In this document: positions 3,729 through 32,896 of the stretch, piece by piece | How positions within the stretch are numbered: the stretch's first letter is position 1 | Layout of the letters: every line of letters begins with the position of its first letter | IMG/VR virus record: IMGVR_UViG_2869924733_000005 | Coordinates: 1-37,777 of that record | Strand: one strand, 5' to 3' | Length of the DNA stretch: 37,777 bases | DNA from: a virus | Taxonomy: Duplodnaviria > Heunggongvirae > Uroviricota > Caudoviricetes | The notes under the pieces: generated by a model | Told to the model about the DNA's origin: nothing | What the model saw: the letters and a program-made list of their open reading frames with translations, nothing else | The model's database searches: none | Translations under genes and position numbers: made by a program

Positions 3729-3804
3729 GGCCCTTTAGCTCAGTGGTGAGAGCGAGCGACTCATAATCGCCAGGTCGCTGGTTCAAATCCAGCAAGGGCC
3801 ACCA
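3729..3804 (+). tRNA. tRNA-Ile2 (anticodon CAU, lysidine type, reads AUA)
   Basis: Cloverleaf with acceptor GGCCCTT/AAGGGCC, anticodon loop CTCATAA, T-loop GGTTCAAATCC, 3' CCA; closely resembles E. coli ileX. Confidence 0.85.
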
Positions 3805-3904
3805 TCACAAACCGCCATTAGCTTATCAGGAAGAGCAGACGACACGATAACAGGGTTGTTGGTGCGGGGGCGGGTCCCCGATGGCGGTCCATTATCGGTA
3901 TTCA

Positions 3905-3981
3905 GCGTTGTTAGCTCAGCCGGACAGAGCAATTGCCTTCTAAGCAATCGGTCACTGGTTCGAATCCAGTACAGCGCGCCA
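3905..3981 (+). tRNA. tRNA-Arg (anticodon UCU, reads AGA)
   Basis: Acceptor GCGTTGT/ACAGCGC, anticodon loop CTTCTAA, T-loop GGTTCGAATCC, 3' GCCA. Confidence 0.85.
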
Positions 3982-4937: not shown

Positions 4938-5366
4938 ATGGGTTTTCGTAGCGCATCAATTCTTACGTTGATTATTAGTGGGATTATTATCGGGTGCACT
5001 GATGCTGTATCGACAAATTATCATGACCGTACATCATATTACTCCGATAAAGCAATAGAGACACAGTATGTGAGTTCATCTGAACGTACTTCTGATGTTA
5101 GTGAGGATATCCGTCTGTATGCCCATCAAATCAAGAGCGCCATCGAAAAACAGTTCGGGGATGCGAGTAAGTATTCAGGAAAAGAGTGTACACTGAGAAT
5201 GCATATGGCCCCGAATGGCCTTCTACTGGAGGTTAAAAGAGAAAGTGGAGACCTCGATTTATGTCGTGAAGCGATGAATGCGATAAAGAATGCTGATATA
5301 CCTGCCCCCCCTTCGCCGGAAGTATATAAAGTATTTCAAAATGGGGTGCTGGATTTTAAACCCTGA
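4938..5366 (+). CDS. lipoprotein with TolA C-terminal (domain III)-like fold
   Basis: Lipobox IIGC; C-terminal HQIKSAIEKQFGDASKYSGKECTLRMHMAPNGLLLEVKRESGDLDLCREAMNAIKNADIPAPPSPEVYKVFQNGVLDFKP aligns with remembered E. coli TolA C-terminus. Confidence 0.7.
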   Translation: MGFRSASILTLIISGIIIGCTDAVSTNYHDRTSYYSDKAIETQYVSSSERTSDVSEDIRLYAHQIKSAIEKQFGDASKYSGKECTLRMHMAPNGLLLEVKRESGDLDLCREAMNAIKNADIPAPPSPEVYKVFQNGVLDFKP

Positions 5367-5516: not shown

Positions 5517-5912
5517 GTGGGATTAAAGAAAATCGTTATGTTGACTTTTTGGGTCGGTTTTGTTGCGGGATGCACACCTTTACACCCTTCAGATTGCCAC
5601 AAAACTACTGCTACAGGTAGTTGCAGTTCAGGACGCTGGGATGATCAGGATGAATGGGGGGCGCAAGCGCGGGGAATCAGAGCTGCAATTAATGCCAAAC
5701 TTGATGAGCCGCATAACTGGAAAGGGAAAAAATGCAGGTTGCATATGGAATTCTCTCAGGATGGCACGGCGTTAAAAATATCTACCAGTAACGGTGATAA
5801 AGCCTATTGCGAAGCGATAAAGTCCGCAGCTCATAAAGCCAAATTTCCGGCCTTCAACAATCCGGAAGTCTACAGAGATTTTCAGAAATCTGGCTTTGAC
5901 ATGCGAGGTTAG
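5517..5912 (+). CDS. lipoprotein, divergent TolA domain III-like paralog
   Basis: GTG start with gaggag RBS; lipobox VAGC; ...GKKCRLHMEFSQDGTALKISTSNGDKAYCEAIKSAAHKAKFPAFNNPEVYRDFQKSGFD shares the same motif pattern as the upstream gene. Confidence 0.65.
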   Translation: MGLKKIVMLTFWVGFVAGCTPLHPSDCHKTTATGSCSSGRWDDQDEWGAQARGIRAAINAKLDEPHNWKGKKCRLHMEFSQDGTALKISTSNGDKAYCEAIKSAAHKAKFPAFNNPEVYRDFQKSGFDMRG

Positions 5913-7790: not shown

Positions 7791-8141
7791 ATGCCATCAC
7801 GAATCCTACGCGCCTGCCGTAAGCGTGGATGTGCAGGTACAACCACAGACAGTTCTGGTTACTGCGATAAACATCGTGGCGAAGGATGGGTACAGCATCA
7901 ACGCGGACTGAGCCGCCACCAGCGTGGCTATGGCTCGAAATGGGATGCCATACGTGCGCGCATACTGAAGCGTGATAATCATCTGTGTCAGAACTGCCTG
8001 CGCAATGGGAGAGCCGTTGAAGCCAGAACTGTGGACCACATCATTCCGAAAGCTCATGGTGGCACGGATGCAGACAGTAACCTGCAGAGTCTGTGCTGGC
8101 CCTGTCATAAAGCAAAAACAGCGCGCGAACGCATCAATTGA
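7791..8141 (+). CDS. HNH endonuclease (terminase-associated)
   Basis: CxxC...HH...CxxCH motifs; sits immediately upstream of terminase as in HK97-like cos phages. Confidence 0.8.
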   Translation: MPSRILRACRKRGCAGTTTDSSGYCDKHRGEGWVQHQRGLSRHQRGYGSKWDAIRARILKRDNHLCQNCLRNGRAVEARTVDHIIPKAHGGTDADSNLQSLCWPCHKAKTARERIN

Positions 8142-8287: not shown

Positions 8288-8770
8288 ATGTCTGGACCCC
8301 CGAAAACCCCGCCACGCCTGCATTTGATACGAGGCAACCCCTCAAAGCGCCCCGTTAAAGACCTCAAAAAAACCGCTAAAAAGGATGAAAAAGGTCTCCC
8401 TAAAATTCCGCAACATTTAGGGGCACAGGGGAAGTACTGGTTCAGGCGAATGGCGGAAGAGTTGAATGCGGAAGGGATCATTTCTCAGCTCGATGCACGT
8501 GCGCTCGAGTTACTGGTGGAAGCCTACACCGAATACCGGCATCACTGCGAAATACTCGATGTTGAGGGTTATACCTACCGCACGGAAACGCAGAATGGCG
8601 ATGTGCTGATCAAGGCACACCCGGCTGCTGCGATGAAGGCTGATGCCTGGAAGCGGATCCGGGCGATGCTTGCAGAGTTTGGTATGTCACCGGCAAGCCG
8701 GGCGAAAGTAAATACCGCCGGACCGGATGATGTTGATCCGCTGGCAGAGCTTTTAAAAGCGAGAGACTGA
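8288..8770 (+). CDS. terminase small subunit
   Basis: 160 aa, basic N-terminus, position directly before TerL with ATGA overlap. Confidence 0.75.
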   Translation: MSGPPKTPPRLHLIRGNPSKRPVKDLKKTAKKDEKGLPKIPQHLGAQGKYWFRRMAEELNAEGIISQLDARALELLVEAYTEYRHHCEILDVEGYTYRTETQNGDVLIKAHPAAAMKADAWKRIRAMLAEFGMSPASRAKVNTAGPDDVDPLAELLKARD

Positions 8771-10527
8771 TGGCAAAAGTGGCTGACGGGATCCGCTACG
8801 CCGAACGTGTTGTTGCAGGAGAAATTGTCGCTGGCGAATTTGTCCGTCTGGCCTGCCAGCGTTTTCTTGATGATCTGAAGTACGGCGAAGAGCGGGGGAT
8901 TTATTTCAGTGAACCCCGTGCGCAGCACATCCTGAATTTCTACAAATTTGTGCCCCATGTGAAAGGGGCGCTGGCAGGCCAGCCCATTGAGTTGATGGAC
9001 TGGCATGTATTTATCCTTATTAATATTTTTGGTTTTGTCATTCCGCTGGTGAATGAATAGACCGGGGAAGTTGTCATGCGCAGCGATGGCAGCGGACGCC
9101 CGGTGATGGTGCGCCGGTTCCGGACGGCGTACAACGAAGTCGCCCGTAAAAACGCAAAATCAACCCTGTCATCGGGTATCGGTCTGTATATGACGGGGGC
9201 AGATGGTGAAGGCGGGGCTGAGGTGTATTCAGCCGCAACCACGCGTGACCAGGCCAGAATCGTGTTTGAAGACGCCAAAAATATGGTCAGAAAAGCCCGG
9301 TCGACACTCGGGCGGTTGTTTGATTTCAACAAGCTGGCGATTTACCAGGAGCAGAGCGCATCAAAATTTGAACCGCTTTCCTCGGATGCAAACAACCTGG
9401 ACGGTCTGAACATCCACTGCGCCATTATTGATGAGCTGCATGCTCATAAAACCCGTGACGTGTGGGACGTTCTGGAAACGGCAACCGGTGCCCGTCTGCA
9501 GTCCCTTTTATTTGGCATCACCACGGCTGGCTTTAACAAGGAAGGGATTTGTTACGAGCAGCGCGATTACGCCATCAAGGTATTACGAGGCTATAACAGC
9601 GACGTGGAGGGGGCGGTAAAAGACGACTCCTACTTTGCGATTATTTACACGCTCGATGAGGGAGATGATCCGTTTGATGAGACGGTCTGGCAGAAAGCGA
9701 ATCCCGGCCTGGGCATCTGTAAACGCTGGGATGATCTGCGTCGTCTGGCGAAAAAAGCGAAAGAACAGGTCTCTGCGCGGGTGAATTTTTTTACCAAACA
9801 CATGAATGTGTGGGTAACAGCAGAGTCTGCCTGGATGGACATGATTAAGTGGGAGAAGTGCGAATACATTGCCCCACGACATGAGCTGAAAACGTATCCC
9901 ATGTGGGTCGGCGTTGACCTTGCTCATAAGATTGATATCTGCGCGGCGGCAAAACTCTGGCGAACCGATAACGGGCATGTTCATGCCGATTTTAAATTCT
10001 GGCTTCCGGAAGGACGGCTGGAACGATGCTCGCGGCAGCAGGCAGAACTTTACCGGAAGTGGGCGGAGATGGATAAGCTGATTCTGACGGATGGTGATGT
10101 TATCGATCATGCTCAGATAAAAAGTGACTTACTGGAATGGATTGGTGGTGAAAACCTCAGGGAACTGGGATTTGACCCGTGGAGCGCGATGCAGTTCAGC
10201 CTGGCACTGGCTGAAGAAGGGATACCGCTGGTGGAGGTTCCGCAGACGGTCCGCAATCTGTCAGAGGCCATGAAGGAAACGGAATCACTGGTTTATGCCG
10301 GACGTTTCCACCACAGCAATCATCCGGTCATGAACTGGATGATGTCTAACGTTACGGTAAAACCGGACAAAAACGACAATATCTTCCCGAATAAATCCAC
10401 TCCGGAAGCCAAAATCGACGGCCCTGTTGCGCTTTTTACGGCCATGAGCCGCTTTCTGGTAAATGGCGGGGACGTGAATGACTTTCTGTCCACGCTTGAT
10501 CCTGATGAGGACCTGTTAATTCTGTGA
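8770..10527 (+). pseudogene. terminase large subunit interrupted by in-frame TAG at 9058-9060
   Basis: ORFs 8770..9060 and 9076..10527 are in the same frame, separated only by TAG; Walker A-like ARKNAKST just downstream of the stop. Confidence 0.55.
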
Positions 10528-19898: not shown

Positions 19899-20384
19899 AC
19901 GACAGCAGGGTTGTGTCAATTATGCAGTCATCACGTCGGGACGGAGGATTATACAGTGCCTGAGCCTGAAGTTTTTAACTGGATCCCCCGCGAGGGGATG
20001 GAGACGACACGAAAGCCATCTGTTATTACGGTAAAGTTCGGTGACGGATATGAACAGTGAGGTAGCCTGAGTTTAACGGACACTCCTTCCTGAAATAGAA
20101 TGGCATCAGAAGGAGCTAATAATGAGCAGAAAAACCCAACGTTACTCTAAAGAGTTCAAAGCCGAAGCTGTCAGAACGGTTCTTGAAAATCAACTTTCGA
20201 TCAGTGAAGGCGCTTCCCGATTATCCCTTCCTGAAGGCACTTTAGGACAATGGGTTACCGCCGCCAGAAAAGGGCTCGGTACTCCTGGCTCCCGCACGGT
20301 GGCTGAACTGGAATCTGAAATTCTGCAACTGCGTAAGGCGTTAAATGAAGCTCGCCTTGAGCGAGATATATTAAAAAAAGCAAC

Positions 20385-21605
20385 TGTAGATTCAATTGGT
20401 CAACGCAACAGTTATGTGAAAACATGGGGTTGCGGAGGTTTTTTGAATGAGACGAACATTTACAGCAGAGGAAAAAGCCTCTGTTTTTGAACTATGGAAG
20501 AACGGAACAGGCTTCAGTGAAATAGCGAATATCCTGGGTTCAAAACCCGGAACGATCTTCACTATGTTAAGGGATACTGGCGGCATAAAACCCCATGAGC
20601 GTAAGCGGGCTGTAGCTCACCTGACACTGTCTGAGCGCGAGGAGATACGAGCTGGTTTGTCAGCCAAAATGAGCATTCGTGCGATAGCTACTGCGCTGAA
20701 TCGCAGTCCTTCGACGATCTCACGTGAAGTTCAGCGTAATCGGGGCAGACGCTATTACAAAGCTGTTGATGCTAATAACCGAGCCAACAGAATGGCGAAA
20801 AGGCCAAAACCGTGCTTACTGGATCAAAATTTACCATTGCGAAAGCTTGTTCTGGAAAAGCTGGAGATGAAATGGTCTCCAGAGCAAATATCAGGATGGT
20901 TAAGGCGAACAAAACCACGTCAAAAAACGCTGCGAATATCACCTGAGACAATTTATAAAACGCTGTACTTTCGTAGCCGTGAAGCGCTACACCACCTGAA
21001 TATACAGCATCTGCGACGGTCGCATAGCCTTCGCCATGGCAGGCGTCATACCCGCAAAGGCGAAAGAGGTACGATTAACATAGTGAACGGAACACCAATT
21101 CACGAACGTTCCCGAAATATCGATAACAGACGCTCTCTGGGGCATTGGGAGGGCGATTTAGTCTCAGGTACAAAAAACTCTCATATAGCCACACTTGTAG
21201 ACCGAAAATCACGTTATACGATCATCCTTAGACTCAGGGGCAAAGATTCTGTCTCAGTAAATCAGGCTCTTACCGACAAATTCCTGAGTTTACCGTCAGA
21301 ACTCAGAAAATCACTGACATGGGACAGAGGAATGGAACTGGCCAGACATCTAGAATTTACTGTCAGCACCGGCGTTAAAGTTTACTTCTGCGATCCTCAG
21401 AGTCCTTGGCAGCGGGGAACAAATGAGAACACAAATGGGCTAATTCGGCAGTACTTTCCTAAAAAGACATGTCTTGCCCAATATACTCAACATGAACTAG
21501 ATCTGGTTGCTGCTCAGCTAAACAACAGACCGAGAAAGACACTGAAGTTCAAAACACCGAAAGAGATAATTGAAAGGGGTGTTGCATTGACAGATTGAAT
21601 CTACA
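20385..21605 (+). mobile_element. IS30 (1221 bp), 2-bp TSD AC, inserted inside IS600-like orfA
   Basis: Ends TGTAGATTCAATTGGTCAACG...GTTGCATTGACAGATTGAATCTACA; length exactly 1221 bp. Confidence 0.9.
20447..21598 (+). CDS. insI: IS30 transposase
   Basis: 383-aa ORF MRRTFTAEEKASVFELWKNGTGFSEIANILG... with DDE region; matches remembered IS30 transposase. Confidence 0.9.
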   Translation: MRRTFTAEEKASVFELWKNGTGFSEIANILGSKPGTIFTMLRDTGGIKPHERKRAVAHLTLSEREEIRAGLSAKMSIRAIATALNRSPSTISREVQRNRGRRYYKAVDANNRANRMAKRPKPCLLDQNLPLRKLVLEKLEMKWSPEQISGWLRRTKPRQKTLRISPETIYKTLYFRSREALHHLNIQHLRRSHSLRHGRRHTRKGERGTINIVNGTPIHERSRNIDNRRSLGHWEGDLVSGTKNSHIATLVDRKSRYTIILRLRGKDSVSVNQALTDKFLSLPSELRKSLTWDRGMELARHLEFTVSTGVKVYFCDPQSPWQRGTNENTNGLIRQYFPKKTCLAQYTQHELDLVAAQLNNRPRKTLKFKTPKEIIERGVALTD

Positions 21606-21682
21606 ACAGCGTATTTTGCACAGGAGTCGCTGAAAAATACGCGTTAATCGAACAATGGCGACAACAATTTCCCATTGAAGCG

Positions 21683-22501
21683 ATGTGTCAGGTATTTGGT
21701 GTATCCAGGAGCGGTTATTACAACCGGGTACAGCATGAACCCTCAGACAGAAAACAAAGTGATGAGCGGCTAAAACTGGAGATTAAGGTGGCACATATCC
21801 GCACTCGCGAAACATATGGAACCCGGCGGCTCCAGACGGAGCTGGCAGAGAATGGCATCATCGTTGGTCGTGACCGACTGGCACGTCTTCGTAAGGAGCT
21901 AAGGCTACGCTGTAAGCAGAAACGCAAGTTCAGAGCGACTACGAACCCGAACCACAATCTGCCAGTTGCGCCAAATCTGTTGAACCAGACGTTCGCTCCT
22001 ACAGCACCAAATCAGGTCTGGGTGGCGGACCTGACGTATGTTGCCACACAGGAGGGATGGTTGTACCTCGCTGGCATCAAAGATGTTTATACGTGCGAAA
22101 TTGTCGGCTACGCCATGGGAGAGCGCATGACAAAAGAGCTGACAGGTAAAGCCCTGTTTATGGCGCTCAGGAGCCAGCGCCCACCTGCCGGGCTAATCCA
22201 CCACTCTGATCGAGGTTCACAGTACTGCGCATACGATTACCGGGTCATACAGGAGCAGTCTGGTCTGAAAACATCAATGTCGCGTAAAGGTAACTGTTAC
22301 GACAACGCTCCGATGGAAAGCTTCTGGGGAACGCTGAAAAATGAGAGCCTGAGCCACTATCGTTTTAATAACCGGGATGAAGCCATCTCAGTAATACGGG
22401 AATACATTGAGATTTTCTACAATCGTCAGCGTCGTCACTCTCGTCTGGGGAATATCTCCCCGGCAGCCTTCAGGGAGAAATATCATCAGATGGCTGCTTA
22501 A
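21683..22501 (+). CDS. IS600-like orfB (DDE transposase domain; normally made as orfAB fusion)
   Basis: IS3-family integrase core (HSDRGSQY...); -1 frame relative to orfA. Confidence 0.75.
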   Translation: MCQVFGVSRSGYYNRVQHEPSDRKQSDERLKLEIKVAHIRTRETYGTRRLQTELAENGIIVGRDRLARLRKELRLRCKQKRKFRATTNPNHNLPVAPNLLNQTFAPTAPNQVWVADLTYVATQEGWLYLAGIKDVYTCEIVGYAMGERMTKELTGKALFMALRSQRPPAGLIHHSDRGSQYCAYDYRVIQEQSGLKTSMSRKGNCYDNAPMESFWGTLKNESLSHYRFNNRDEAISVIREYIEIFYNRQRRHSRLGNISPAAFREKYHQMAA

Positions 22502-22786
22502 AAAAAGAACAAATGGTAGTGTCCGCTATTGCCAGTACACCTCACAGCGACGGGCTGGTGGTCTGAATGCGGATCTGAAAACGTTTAAACCGGTGTTTCG
22601 TGTCACAGATGAATATTCCCGTGCTGCGCTGGACAGTTTTTTATCCCGTCATGCCGGGATACGTGCTTTTTTGTGGCGTCCGCCAAAACACAACAGAATC
22701 GTCCGGGTTGTCTGCAGGGAGTGGAGTATTTCGGATAATGCCATGTATACCGATTTTAACTGTACCTTTGAAGAGGTCACTCACTG

Positions 22787-24835: not shown

Positions 24836-28251
<3,416 letters not shown>

Positions 28252-28288: not shown

Positions 28289-29713
28289 TAATGCCGTTCA
28301 GTTAAGGATCAGTTGACCGATCCAGTGGCTGTGTAAGAATCCGGAAACGCTCACTTGTTTCCGGATTTTTTTATGCACATTGGACAGGCTCTTGATCTGG
28401 TATCCCGTTACGATTCTCTGCGTAACCCACTGACTTCTCTGGGGATTACCTCGACCCCGAACTCATCTCTCGTTGCCTTGCCGAATCAGGTACTGTAACG
28501 CTACGCAAGCGCCGTCTTCCCCTCGAAATGATGGTCTGGTGTATTGTTGGCATGGCGCTTGAGCGTAAAGAACCTCTTCACCAGATTGTGAATCGCCTGG
28601 ACATCATGCTGCCGGGCAATCGCCCCTTCGTTGCCCCCAGTGCCGTTATTCAGGCCCGCCAGCGCCTGGGAAGTGAGGCTGTCCGCCGCGTGTTCACGAA
28701 AACAGCGCAGCTCTGGCATAACGCCACGCCGCATCCGCACTGGTGCGGCCTGACCCTGCTGGCCATCGATGGTGTGTTCTGGCGCACACCGGATACACCA
28801 GAGAACGATGCAGCCTTCCCCCGCCAGACACATGCCGGGAACCCGGCGCTCTACCCGCAGGTCAAAATGGTCTGCCAGATGGAACTGACCAGCCATCTGC
28901 TGACGGCTGCAGCCTTCGGCACGATGAAGAACAGCGAAAATGAGCTTGCTGAGCAACTTATAGAACAAACCGGCGATAACACTCTGACGTTAATGGATAA
29001 AGGTTATTACTCACTGGGACTGTTAAATGCCTGGAGCCTGGCGGGAGAACACCGCCACTGGATGATACCTCTCAGAAAGGGAGCGCAATATGAAGAGCTC
29101 AGAAAACTGGGTAAAGGCGATCATCTGGTGAAGCTGAAAACCAGCCCGCAGGCACGAAAAAAGTGGCCGGGACTGGGAAATGAAGTGACAGCCCGCCTGC
29201 TGACCGTGACGCGCAAAGGAAAAGTCTGCCATCTGCTGACGTCGATGACGGACGCCATGCGCTTCCCCGGAGGAGAAATGGCGGATCTGTACAGTCATCG
29301 CTGGGAAATCGAACTGGGATACAGGGAGATAAAACAGACGATGCAACTGAGCAGGCTGACGCTGAGAAGTAAAAAGCCGGAGCTTGTGGAGCAAGAGCTG
29401 TGGGGTGTCTTACTGGCTTATAATCTGGTGAGATATCAGATGATTAAAATGGCGGAACATCTGAAAGGTTACTGGCCGAATCAACTGAGTTTCTCAGAAT
29501 CATGCGGAATGGTGATGAGAATGCTGATGACATTGCAGGGCGCTTCACCGGGACGTATACCGGAGCTGATGCGCGATCTTGCAAGTATGGGACAACTTGT
29601 GAAATTACCGACGAGAAGGGGAAGGGCCTTCCCGAGAGTGGTAAAGGAGAGGCCCTGGAAATACCCCACAGCCCCGAAAAAGAGCCAGTCAGTTGCTTAA
29701 CTGACTGGCATTA
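28289..29713 (+). mobile_element. IS4 (1425 bp; one base short of canonical), flanked by direct repeat CACCAGAAATGGTG
   Basis: Terminal IRs TAATGCCGTTCAGTTAAGG.../...CTTAACTGACTGGCATTA; 14-bp direct repeat 28275-28288 and 29714-29727. Confidence 0.85.
28377..29700 (+). pseudogene. insG: IS4 transposase with frameshift in G-run near 28441
   Basis: N-terminus [24 protein letters not shown] then out of frame; remainder from [17 protein letters not shown]... matches IS4 transposase in another frame. Confidence 0.65.
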
Positions 29714-30412: not shown

Positions 30413-31157
30413 GTGGGGTGAATATGGCAGTAAAGATTTCAGGTGTACTGAAAGACGGCACAGGAAAACCGGTACAGAACTGCACAATCCAGCTGAAAGC
30501 AAAACGTAACAGCACCACGGTGGTGGTGAACACGCTGGCCTCAGAAAATCCGGATGAAGCCGGGCGTTACAGCATGGACGTTGAGTACGGTCAGTACAGC
30601 GTTATTCTGTTGGTGGAAGGATTCCCGCCGTCACATGCCGGGACCATCACCGTGTATGAAGATTCCCGACCCGGTACGCTGAATGATTTTCTCGGTGCCA
30701 TGACGGAGGATGATGCCCGTCCGGAGGCTCTGCGCCGTTTTGAACTGATGGTGGAAGAGGTGGCGCGTAACGCGTCCGCGGTGGCACAGAACACGGCAGC
30801 CGCGGAGAAGTCAGCCGGCAATGCCGGCACATCTGCCCGTGAGGCGGCAATCCATGCGACTGATGCTGCAGGCTCAGCACGCGCAGCCAGCACGTCAGCC
30901 GGACAGGCCGCTTCGTCGGCTCAGTCAGCGTCTTCCAGCGCAGGAACGGCATCAACAAAGGCCACTGAAGCGGAAAAAAGTGCTGCCGCTGCAGAGTCCT
31001 CAAAAAGTGCGGCGGCCACCAGTGCCGGTGCGGCGAAAACGTCAGAAACGAATGCCGCAGCGTCACTAGACTGGCCCCCTGAATCTCCAGACAACCAGTA
31101 TCACTTAAATAAGTGATAGTCTTAATACTAGTTTTTAGACTAGTCATTGGAGTACAG

Positions 31158-31523
31158 ATGATTGATGTCTTAGGGCCGGAGAAACGCAGACGGCGTACCA
31201 CACAGGAAAAGATCGCAATTGTTCAGCAGAGCTTTGAACCGGGGATGACGGTCTCCCTCGTTGCCCGGCAACATGGTGTAGCAGCCAGCCAGTTATTTCT
31301 CTGGCGTAAGCAATACCAGGAAGGAAGTCTTACTGCTGTGGCCGCCGGAGAACAGGTTGTTCCTGCCTCTGAACTTGCTGCCGCCATGAAGCAGATTAAA
31401 GAACTCCAGCGCCTGCTCGGCAAGAAAACGATGGAAAATGAACTCCTCAAAGAAGCCGTTGAATATGGACGGGCAAAAAAGTGGATAGCGCACGCGCCCT
31501 TATTGCCCGGGGATGGGGAGTAA
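31158..31523 (+). CDS. insC: IS2 InsC (orfA)
   Basis: [41 protein letters not shown]... matches IS2 orfA. Confidence 0.85.
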
Positions 31524-32386
31524 GCTTAGTCAGCCGTTGTCTCCGGGTGTCGCGTGCGCAGTTGCACGTCATTCTCAGACGAACCGATGACTGGATGGAT
31601 GGCCGCCGCAGTCGTCACACTGATGATACGGATGTGCTTCTCCGTATACACCATGTTATCGGAGAGCTGCCCACGTATGGTTATCGTCGGGTATGGGCGC
31701 TGCTTCGCAGACAGGCAGAACTTGATGGTATGCCTGCGAACAATGCCAAACGTGTTTACCGGATCATGCGCCAGAATGCGCTGTTGCTTGAGCGAAAACC
31801 TGCTGTACCGCCATCGAAACGGGCACATACAGGCAGAGTGGCCGTGAAAGAAAGCAATCAGCGATGGTGCTCTGACGGGTTCGAGTTCTGCTGTGATAAC
31901 GGAGAGAGACTGCGTGTCACGTTCGCGCTGGACTGCTGTGATCGTGAGGCACTGCACTGGGCGGTGACTACCGGCGGCTTCAACAGTGAAACAGTACAGG
32001 ACGTCATGCTGGGAGCGGTGGAACGCCGCTTCGGCAACGATCTTCCGTCGTCTCCAGTGGAGTGGCTGACGGATAATGGTTCATGCTACCGGGCTAATGA
32101 AACACGCCAGTTCGCCCGGATGTTGGGACTTGAACCGAAGAACACGGCGGTGCGGAGTCCGGAGAGTAACGGAATAGCAGAGAGCTTCGTGAAAACGATA
32201 AAGCGTGACTACATCAGTATCATGCCCAAACCAGACGGGTTAACGGCAGCAAAGAACCTTGCAGAGGCGTTCGAGCATTATAACGAATGGCATCCGCATA
32301 GTGCGCTGGGTTATCGCTCGCCACGGGAATATCTGCGGCAGCGGGCTTGTAATGGGTTAAGTGATAACAGATGTCTGGAAATATAG
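31481..32386 (+). CDS. insD: IS2 InsD (orfB transposase)
   Basis: 301-aa DDE transposase ORF overlapping insC. Confidence 0.85.
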
Positions 32387-32896
32387 GGGCAAATCCAGTC
32401 ACAACAATCAGCAGCCACTTCTGCATCCACCGCGACTACGAAAGCGTCAGAAGCTGCCACCTCAGCCCGGGATGCGGCGGCCTCAAAAGAGGCAGCGAAA
32501 TCATCAGAAACGAACGCATCCTCGAGCGCCAGTAGCGCAGCTTCCTCGGCAACGGCGGCAGGAAATTCCGCGAAGGCGGCAAAAACGTCCGAGACGAACG
32601 CTAAGTCTTCTGAGACGGCAGCGGGACAGAGCGCCTCAGCTGCGGCAGGCTCAAAAACAGCGGCTGCGTCGTCTGCCAGTGCCGCGTCAACAAGTGCCGG
32701 GCAGGCCTCAGCCAGTGCCACCGCCGCCGGAAAATCGGCAGAAAGCGCCGCATCATCCGCTTCAACAGCCACAACAAAGGCTGGCGAAGCCACTGAGCAG
32801 GCCACGGCAGCAGCGAGGTCAGCTTCCGCAGCGAAGACATCCGAAACGAACGCGAAAGCGTCGGAAACCCGTGCAGAATCCTCAAAAACGGCAGCG

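Follow-up and report, generated by a model that had tools for sequence, protein, structure and literature searches.

Does a terminase large-subunit gene (terL) interrupted by an in-frame amber codon still specify a working DNA-packaging motor? The question is raised by a stretch of 37,777 nucleotides (nt), hereafter called the window, which represents the whole of the IMG/VR record IMGVR_UViG_2869924733_000005 and is assigned to the Caudoviricetes. A first-pass annotation, made from the letters alone, described terL as two open reading frames (ORFs) lying in the same frame and parted only by a TAG codon at 9058-9060, took this to be a nonsense lesion rather than a frameshift, and considered the P-loop, ARKNAKST, to be atypical and possibly a second inactivating change. 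Our analyses make it very likely that terL is a nonsense pseudogene, in which Glu97 (GAG) has become an amber codon, that it resides in a defective, HK97-like, cos-type lambdoid prophage of a Shigella/Escherichia coli lineage, and that its P-loop is wild type. The pseudogene is recently acquired and of an ordinary kind, already known.

Reading frame, identity and position of the stop

Translation of positions 8770-10527 (+ strand; 1,758 nt) yields 585 codons in a single frame, with codon 97, TAG, as the sole internal stop and TGA at 10525-10527 as the terminal one. The two ORFs called by the gene finder, 8770..9060 (96 amino acids, aa) and 9076..10527 (483 aa), have this frame in common, so that the description of two in-phase pieces separated by nothing but the TAG is borne out. 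The features of the gene are as follows.

8770..9057, + strand: codons 1-96 of terL, the N-terminal fragment left by the nonsense mutation (conserved residues and AlphaFold2 model)
9058..9060, + strand: in-frame amber codon TAG, codon 97 (GAG or GAA, for Glu, in intact relatives)
9061..10527, + strand: the rest of terL, codons 98-585 and TGA, with the ATPase core and the nuclease domain (Pfam TerL_ATPase and TerL_nuclease; structure 6Z6D)
9076..9078, + strand: ATG corresponding to Met103 of the intact protein, the gene-caller start of the 483-aa ORF (sequence and ORF list)
9142..9165, + strand: Walker A motif or P-loop, A125-R-K-N-A-K-S-T132 (alignment; K57 and K60 in HK97, PMC9410871)
9430..9435, + strand: Walker B catalytic pair D221-E222, encoded by GAT GAG (invariant columns; D153 and E154 in HK97, PMC9410871)

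The 483-aa part matches both Pfam TerL_ATPase (PF03354; 96.8 bits for a cutoff of 23.7) and Pfam TerL_nuclease, the C-terminal RNase H-like domain (PF20441; 178.5 bits for a cutoff of 24), and the repaired protein retrieves the terminase of the HK97 TerL crystal structure 6Z6D with a phmmer E-value of 2.5e-36. An NCBIfam search with the intact TerL returned no family above threshold. As a stand-in for the repaired protein we took the intact homologue P0001, 99% identical to it, of which an AlphaFold2 model was built on 122 homologues (mean predicted local distance difference test score, pLDDT, of 92.7). The best solved structure retrieved with this model by Foldseek is again HK97 TerL 6Z6D (E = 1.3e-37), followed by the D6E, T4 gp17 and Sf6 gp2 terminases. 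By these sequence and model comparisons, the terminase match of 8770-10527 is not due to chance. In our main alignment of 122 TerL sequences, some with as little as about 38% identity, the Walker B pair D221-E222 occupies invariant columns and is intact in the window, and D383, D469 and D550 of the nuclease domain are invariant as well. An uninterrupted frame, as is expected of a functional terL, was found in all homologues compared, and the window copy breaks it at codon 97.

HK97 TerL (gp2) has the same two-domain architecture and fold as the window protein, the same double-lysine Walker A signature R-K-N-x-K-[ST] and a Walker B D-E pair. The two proteins differ in that they are only ~25% identical, in ~60 extra N-terminal residues and two insertions before the P-loop strand in the window TerL, in the replacement of Gly by Ala before the catalytic Lys and, for the window copy, in the interruption by the amber codon.

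The first of these insertions, residues 92-103, is a 12-residue, clade-specific segment absent from 108 of the 122 aligned sequences, and codon 97 lies inside it; the second, smaller one spans residues 108-113. Whether the TAG replaces a conserved residue, a check suggested by the first-pass annotation, can be answered in the negative, as position 97 is occupied by E, N, Q, T, M, I, L, K, R, A or S among close relatives. Loss of residue 97 would thus be harmless in itself, and the truncation alone would do the damage. Nine nearly invariant positions (Y10, R31, D35, H63, G66, L75, W78, F81 and G88) are located upstream of the stop. In the P0001 model, the N-terminal 96 residues form four helices and a strand (residues 89-92) with pLDDT values above 94, and this strand runs into the P-loop region.

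Origin and distribution of the amber allele

In the relatives inspected, codon 97 is GAG or GAA and encodes Glu. The TAG is thus a single G-to-T transversion at 9058, after which translation from the normal start would end at 96 residues. In Megablast searches with terL, 937 of the 5,426 complete E. coli genomes gave matches of 95-99% identity, and 12 deposited phage records also have the gene. It is a single uninterrupted coding sequence of 1,737-1,758 nt in phages Evi, phi467 and Fraca and in E. coli QA-1986 630. The intact genes of E. coli prophages and of phages including Evi (LR597642), phi467 (LN997803) and vB_EcoS-813R8 are 97-98% identical to the window terL in nucleotides and about 99% in amino acids; they have the same length, P-loop and neighbours, and differ from it by GAG or GAA at codon 97. 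That homologues are uninterrupted 585-codon genes with a Glu codon at this place upholds the initial view of a nonsense lesion as opposed to a frameshift. Apart from the TAG, the window gene differs only conservatively from intact copies.

A 60-nt probe centred on the TAG matched 919 E. coli complete-genome records, with at best 59 of 60 positions identical, and none of the 919 has the TAG. No homologue retaining a stop at codon 97 was found among these records and the compared relatives outside the TAG lineage. The annotation order terminase large subunit, hypothetical protein, terminase small subunit, present in tables of E. coli matches, had led us to consider a conserved natural stop and restart. 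We rejected it, the hypothetical protein being a 53-aa ORF downstream of terL and terL itself being one 585-codon coding sequence in the relatives.

Carriers of the allele all belong to one near-identical lineage. CP027027.1 matches the window at 100% identity for 20.5 kb; the TAG is present in the complete genomes CP027027 and CP026836, and the exact 96-aa fragment is also encoded by a third one, CP026824. Beyond these three complete genomes, carriers include short-read assemblies from at least five different runs. The exact 96-aa product was found in 77 blocks of the assembly collection and the exact 483-aa product in 27 blocks. CP026836 is described as Shigella boydii in the literature (PMC12817139); other carriers are labelled E. 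coli by NCBI. A search for the exact 36-mer containing the TAG among the GTDB species representatives gave no matches, which says nothing either way, since GTDB treats Shigella as part of E. coli.

An error in the sequencing or assembly of one record might be invoked, as the same long-read record lacks, compared with short-read assemblies, a single G at each of two places (after 19881 and after 23779), and these gaps have the look of homopolymer errors. The TAG is a substitution and not an indel, however, and it recurs in complete genomes and, without change, in six or more contigs that stem from five different sequencing runs and represent two haplotype backgrounds, which differ at 3-4 downstream sites. 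This explanation is refuted to near certainty, and its presence in several genomes, independent short-read assemblies and two haplotypes indicates that the TAG is an inherited allele of a Shigella/E. coli lineage.

The second TAG haplotype (L005, L009 and L010) also harbours the substitution W348R, at terL codon 348, where the family has a nearly invariant Trp. This single event would fit a loosening of constraint once the nonsense mutation had arisen.

The P-loop and the prospects for residual activity

The Walker A segment ARKNAKST covers residues 125-132 and is encoded at 9142-9165. Of the 120 closest 90%-identity cluster representatives, 119 have the longer string EVARKNAKST unchanged. These representatives are 72-99% identical to the window protein, and their source genera include Escherichia, Salmonella, Serratia, Yersinia, Proteus, Xenorhabdus, Hamiltonella and Klebsiella. 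The string is also found in the deposited phages Evi, phi467 and Fraca. The remaining representative, P0051 (555 aa), has an internal deletion that removes the whole segment from RRFR to ARKNAKST; it looks like a further copy of the same terL clade that was inactivated independently. The main alignment shows K130 to be invariant, S131 to be S or T in all 122 sequences, and R126, K127 and N128 to be nearly invariant. In HK97 TerL the aligned segment reads ARKNGKT, in which K60 is the classical Walker A lysine and K57 a second lysine (PMC9410871); they correspond to K130 and K127 of the window TerL.

The statement, in the first-pass annotation, of a Gly directly before the Lys holds for HK97 and for the family majority, but not as the norm of the clade to which the window protein belongs. 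A set of 148 representatives of 50%-identity clusters has Gly at this position 99 times and Ala 43 times, with Ser (3), Thr (2) and Val (1) making up the rest, and the main alignment has Gly in 80 and Ala in 37 of its 122 sequences, so that Gly is not defining. Ala is therefore common at this position, which the same annotation had named as an observation that would speak against its view, and the notion of an atypical P-loop or of a second lesion in it fails. Gly in HK97 and in most of the family is what would favour Ala129 as a second, independent ATPase-inactivating mutation, an idea with practically no chance of being correct, given that the motif is shared by nearly all the nearest representatives from many genera and by three deposited phages, and that more distant representatives also have Ala and occasionally Ser or Thr; we consider it already refuted. 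Judged from the alignments, Ala129 is the normal residue of the clade and the P-loop no lesion, and ARKNAKST is the wild-type Walker A motif of this TerL clade, with Lys130, Lys127 and D221-E222 intact. As a calibration for other HK97-like TerL proteins, diverse representatives carry Gly before the Walker A Lys in roughly two thirds of cases and Ala in roughly one third, and Ala signals no defect.

Many distant representatives, P0175, P0181, P0184, P0190 and P0207 among them, stand out by their size, being ~900 aa or longer, and match TerL in two stretches. Two full-length alignments of such proteins show KNGK or KNAK, ending with the P-loop lysine, followed by ALALDTPI. From their sequences, these long proteins look like terminases with inteins inserted in the Walker A motif.

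Several observations weigh against regarding terL as inactivated. An ATG at 9076, corresponding to Met103, lies 15 nt past the TAG and is preceded, 7 nt upstream, by a weak Shine-Dalgarno-like GGGGA, so that the 483-aa product could be made; this product would retain the full Pfam TerL_ATPase and TerL_nuclease matches and both Walker motifs. Residue 97 is variable and lies in an insertion lacking from most relatives, so that a protein completed through a suppressor or through rare readthrough would probably be active. Lastly, terL excepted, the head genes are intact all the way from terS to the tail tube, which makes the decay uneven across the prophage. The intactness of the head module apart from terL suggests that the decay is fairly recent.

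The first two of these observations can be developed into distinct alternatives. A split or truncated terminase might work, with restart at ATG 9076 giving a 483-aa ATPase-nuclease that packages DNA alone or with the 96-aa fragment in trans, and the break in a surface-type loop insertion falls where split proteins best tolerate cuts. Nevertheless, Met103 is not an evolved internal start, because the position is Leu in most close relatives. All nine nearly invariant positions would be missing from the restarted product, among them the L-x-x-W-[QH]-x-F segment (with W78-[QH]79-x-F81) and G88 directly before the P-loop strand. Without the conserved N-terminal helices it is not expected to be a competent packaging ATPase/nuclease, and by this reasoning restart at Met103 would yield no competent packaging motor. 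Neither about 920 E. coli records nor the protein searches brought up a relative with the two-gene arrangement, and the allele travels with other inactivating lesions. We regard a functional split terminase as very unlikely.

Readthrough of the amber codon, by a host suppressor or by natural low-level UAG readthrough, would instead give a full-length functional TerL. Gln, Ser or Tyr would probably be tolerated at residue 97, and the rest of the gene has accumulated only conservative differences from intact copies. However, the window encodes no suppressor tRNA, its sole tRNAs being tRNA-Met (CAT) and tRNA-Arg (TCT), and TAG is the ordinary stop, at the ends expected from homologues, of at least four other window genes (ydfR, Rz, the head-tail connector and the tail chaperone), so that general suppression would be costly. 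This normal stop-codon usage led us to reject a reassignment of TAG. Programmed readthrough would be accompanied by a stop conserved in homologues, which is found in none of the 919 E. coli records and is GAG or GAA in the relatives, and by a suppressor tRNA or a reassigned TAG in the same element, neither of which was detected within the window; there is thus no sign of programmed recoding. A consensus scan of 8700-9300 detected no promoter-like or terminator-like signals near the TAG. Even if TerL were restored, gpM, J and the tail fibre gene would remain disrupted. Readthrough that yields a functional terminase seems, if anything, even less probable than a working split protein. Because insertion sequence (IS) elements and a frameshift have destroyed tail genes of the same prophage, the question of an amber suppressor, raised in the first-pass annotation, is largely moot. 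We similarly give very little credence to the broader proposition that terminase activity persists, through a two-piece TerL of 96 and 483 aa made via Met103 or through leaky UAG readthrough, or else that the loss of terL was selected to lock a prophage carrying the cytolethal distending toxin (CDT) genes cdtABC in the chromosome.

A nonsense pseudogene, the reading that we favour, has the same kind of lesion, a UAG in a packaging gene, as the laboratory amber mutants of terminase genes (lambda Aam, HK97 ambers on supF or supE hosts). An HK97 amber mutant was propagated on LE392 (PMC9410871). Unlike the laboratory ambers, the window allele is natural, found in clinical and environmental isolates and chromosomally inherited, with no sign of a suppressor host. 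In CP027027-like Shigella/E. coli genomes, terL would best be annotated as a pseudogene, and not as a 'hypothetical protein' followed by a 'terminase large subunit'. Beyond annotation, the importance of the lesion is small.

Other lesions and neighbouring genes of the prophage

As a reference for lesions we used the intact E. coli prophage L015, whose stretch between the lysis genes and the tail fibre is collinear with the window save for the following differences.

20058..22543 (right boundary approximate), + strand: composite IS of ~2.5 kb splitting the tail gene gpM, made up of an IS3-family element with an IS30-family element inside it (profile matches and collinearity)
20122-20490, + strand: IS3-family orfA, in the composite IS of gpM
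20447-21598, + strand: IS30-family transposase gene nested in the IS3-family element, in the composite IS of gpM
21683-22501, + strand: IS3-family orfB, in the composite IS of gpM
24839..28251, + strand: tail tip gene J, with a frameshift near 27203 that leaves ORFs of 791 and 346 aa (comparison with L015)
28528..29697, + strand: IS4-family transposase gene between J and lom (profile match)
31066..32397, + strand: IS2 (TnpA/TnpB) in the tail-fibre gene, with boundaries taken from the break of collinearity (collinearity and profile match)

The tail region thus holds four IS elements, of the IS3 family, the IS30 family (nested), the IS4 family and IS2, and in CP027027 a transposase with a DDE_3 domain is encoded immediately upstream of the window start. 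The gpM lesion is common to the lineage, since short-read contigs break exactly at this insertion. The 791-aa product of J was also called in an independent draft assembly. The terL nonsense mutation is one of several independent lesions, together with the IS elements in gpM and in the tail fibre gene and the J frameshift, that mark the prophage as a probably non-inducible remnant still carrying cdtABC. The CDT-encoding prophage is best regarded as non-inducible and as non-transmissible by its own packaging machinery.

IS-riddled prophages are typical of Shigella genomes. The window resembles such defective prophages in its multiple IS elements (IS3, IS30 and IS4 families and IS2), in the point lesions of its morphogenesis genes and in cdtABC being kept open. 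It does not differ from them in kind; its head module, apart from terL, is still intact.

The packaging genes upstream of terL are the following.

7791..8141, + strand: HNH endonuclease, an HK97-type packaging accessory protein, upstream of terS (annotation and gene context; role of HK97 GP74, PMC9410871)
8288..8770, + strand: terminase small subunit of the P27 family, whose stop overlaps the terL start (ATGA) (NCBIfam TIGR01558, 107.6 bits)

Downstream of terL come the 53-aa ORF and then genes for the portal, an HK97-type prohead protease and the major capsid protein. From its gene content, the terL neighbourhood can be assigned to the HK97-type cos packaging modules (HNH, TerS-P27, TerL, portal, protease and capsid), and HK97 has the same module of genes. 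The HNH protein stimulates TerL cleavage in such modules (PMC9410871). The products of the intact head genes are 93-100% identical to those of L015, with all but one at 98% or more.

The frameshifts of the C-terminus of the tape measure and of gpK, which result from the single-G deletions after 19881 and after 23779, respectively, were initially considered as lesions and then dropped, as short-read assemblies have an extra G at both places. These deletions may be homopolymer errors of long-read sequencing or strain-specific changes.

Four proteins of 747-859 aa (P0002, P0069, P0077 and P0086) consist of a TerL part, 99-100% identical to that of the window, fused to the gpJ domains FNIII-A_GpJ, Phage_Tail_Tip and Ig_GpJ_C. 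Such a composition points to members of this prophage family in which a deletion has joined terL to J, or else to misassemblies.

Three further sets of genes were identified in the window. The cdtABC operon (35569-37777, + strand) consists of three overlapping open ORFs at the distal end of the defective prophage: CdtA (273 aa) and CdtC (190 aa) match Pfam CDtoxinA, and CdtB (273 aa) matches NCBIfam NF011787 with 398.8 bits. The two tRNA genes are found at 3729-3981, downstream of the Q antiterminator gene; the intact E. coli relative has a different set, Ile, Lys, Thr and Gly, at the same place. Between the tRNA genes and the holin gene, two ORFs at 4938-5366 (142 aa) and 5517-5912 (131 aa) each encode a protein with a TolA C-terminal domain (Pfam PF06519).

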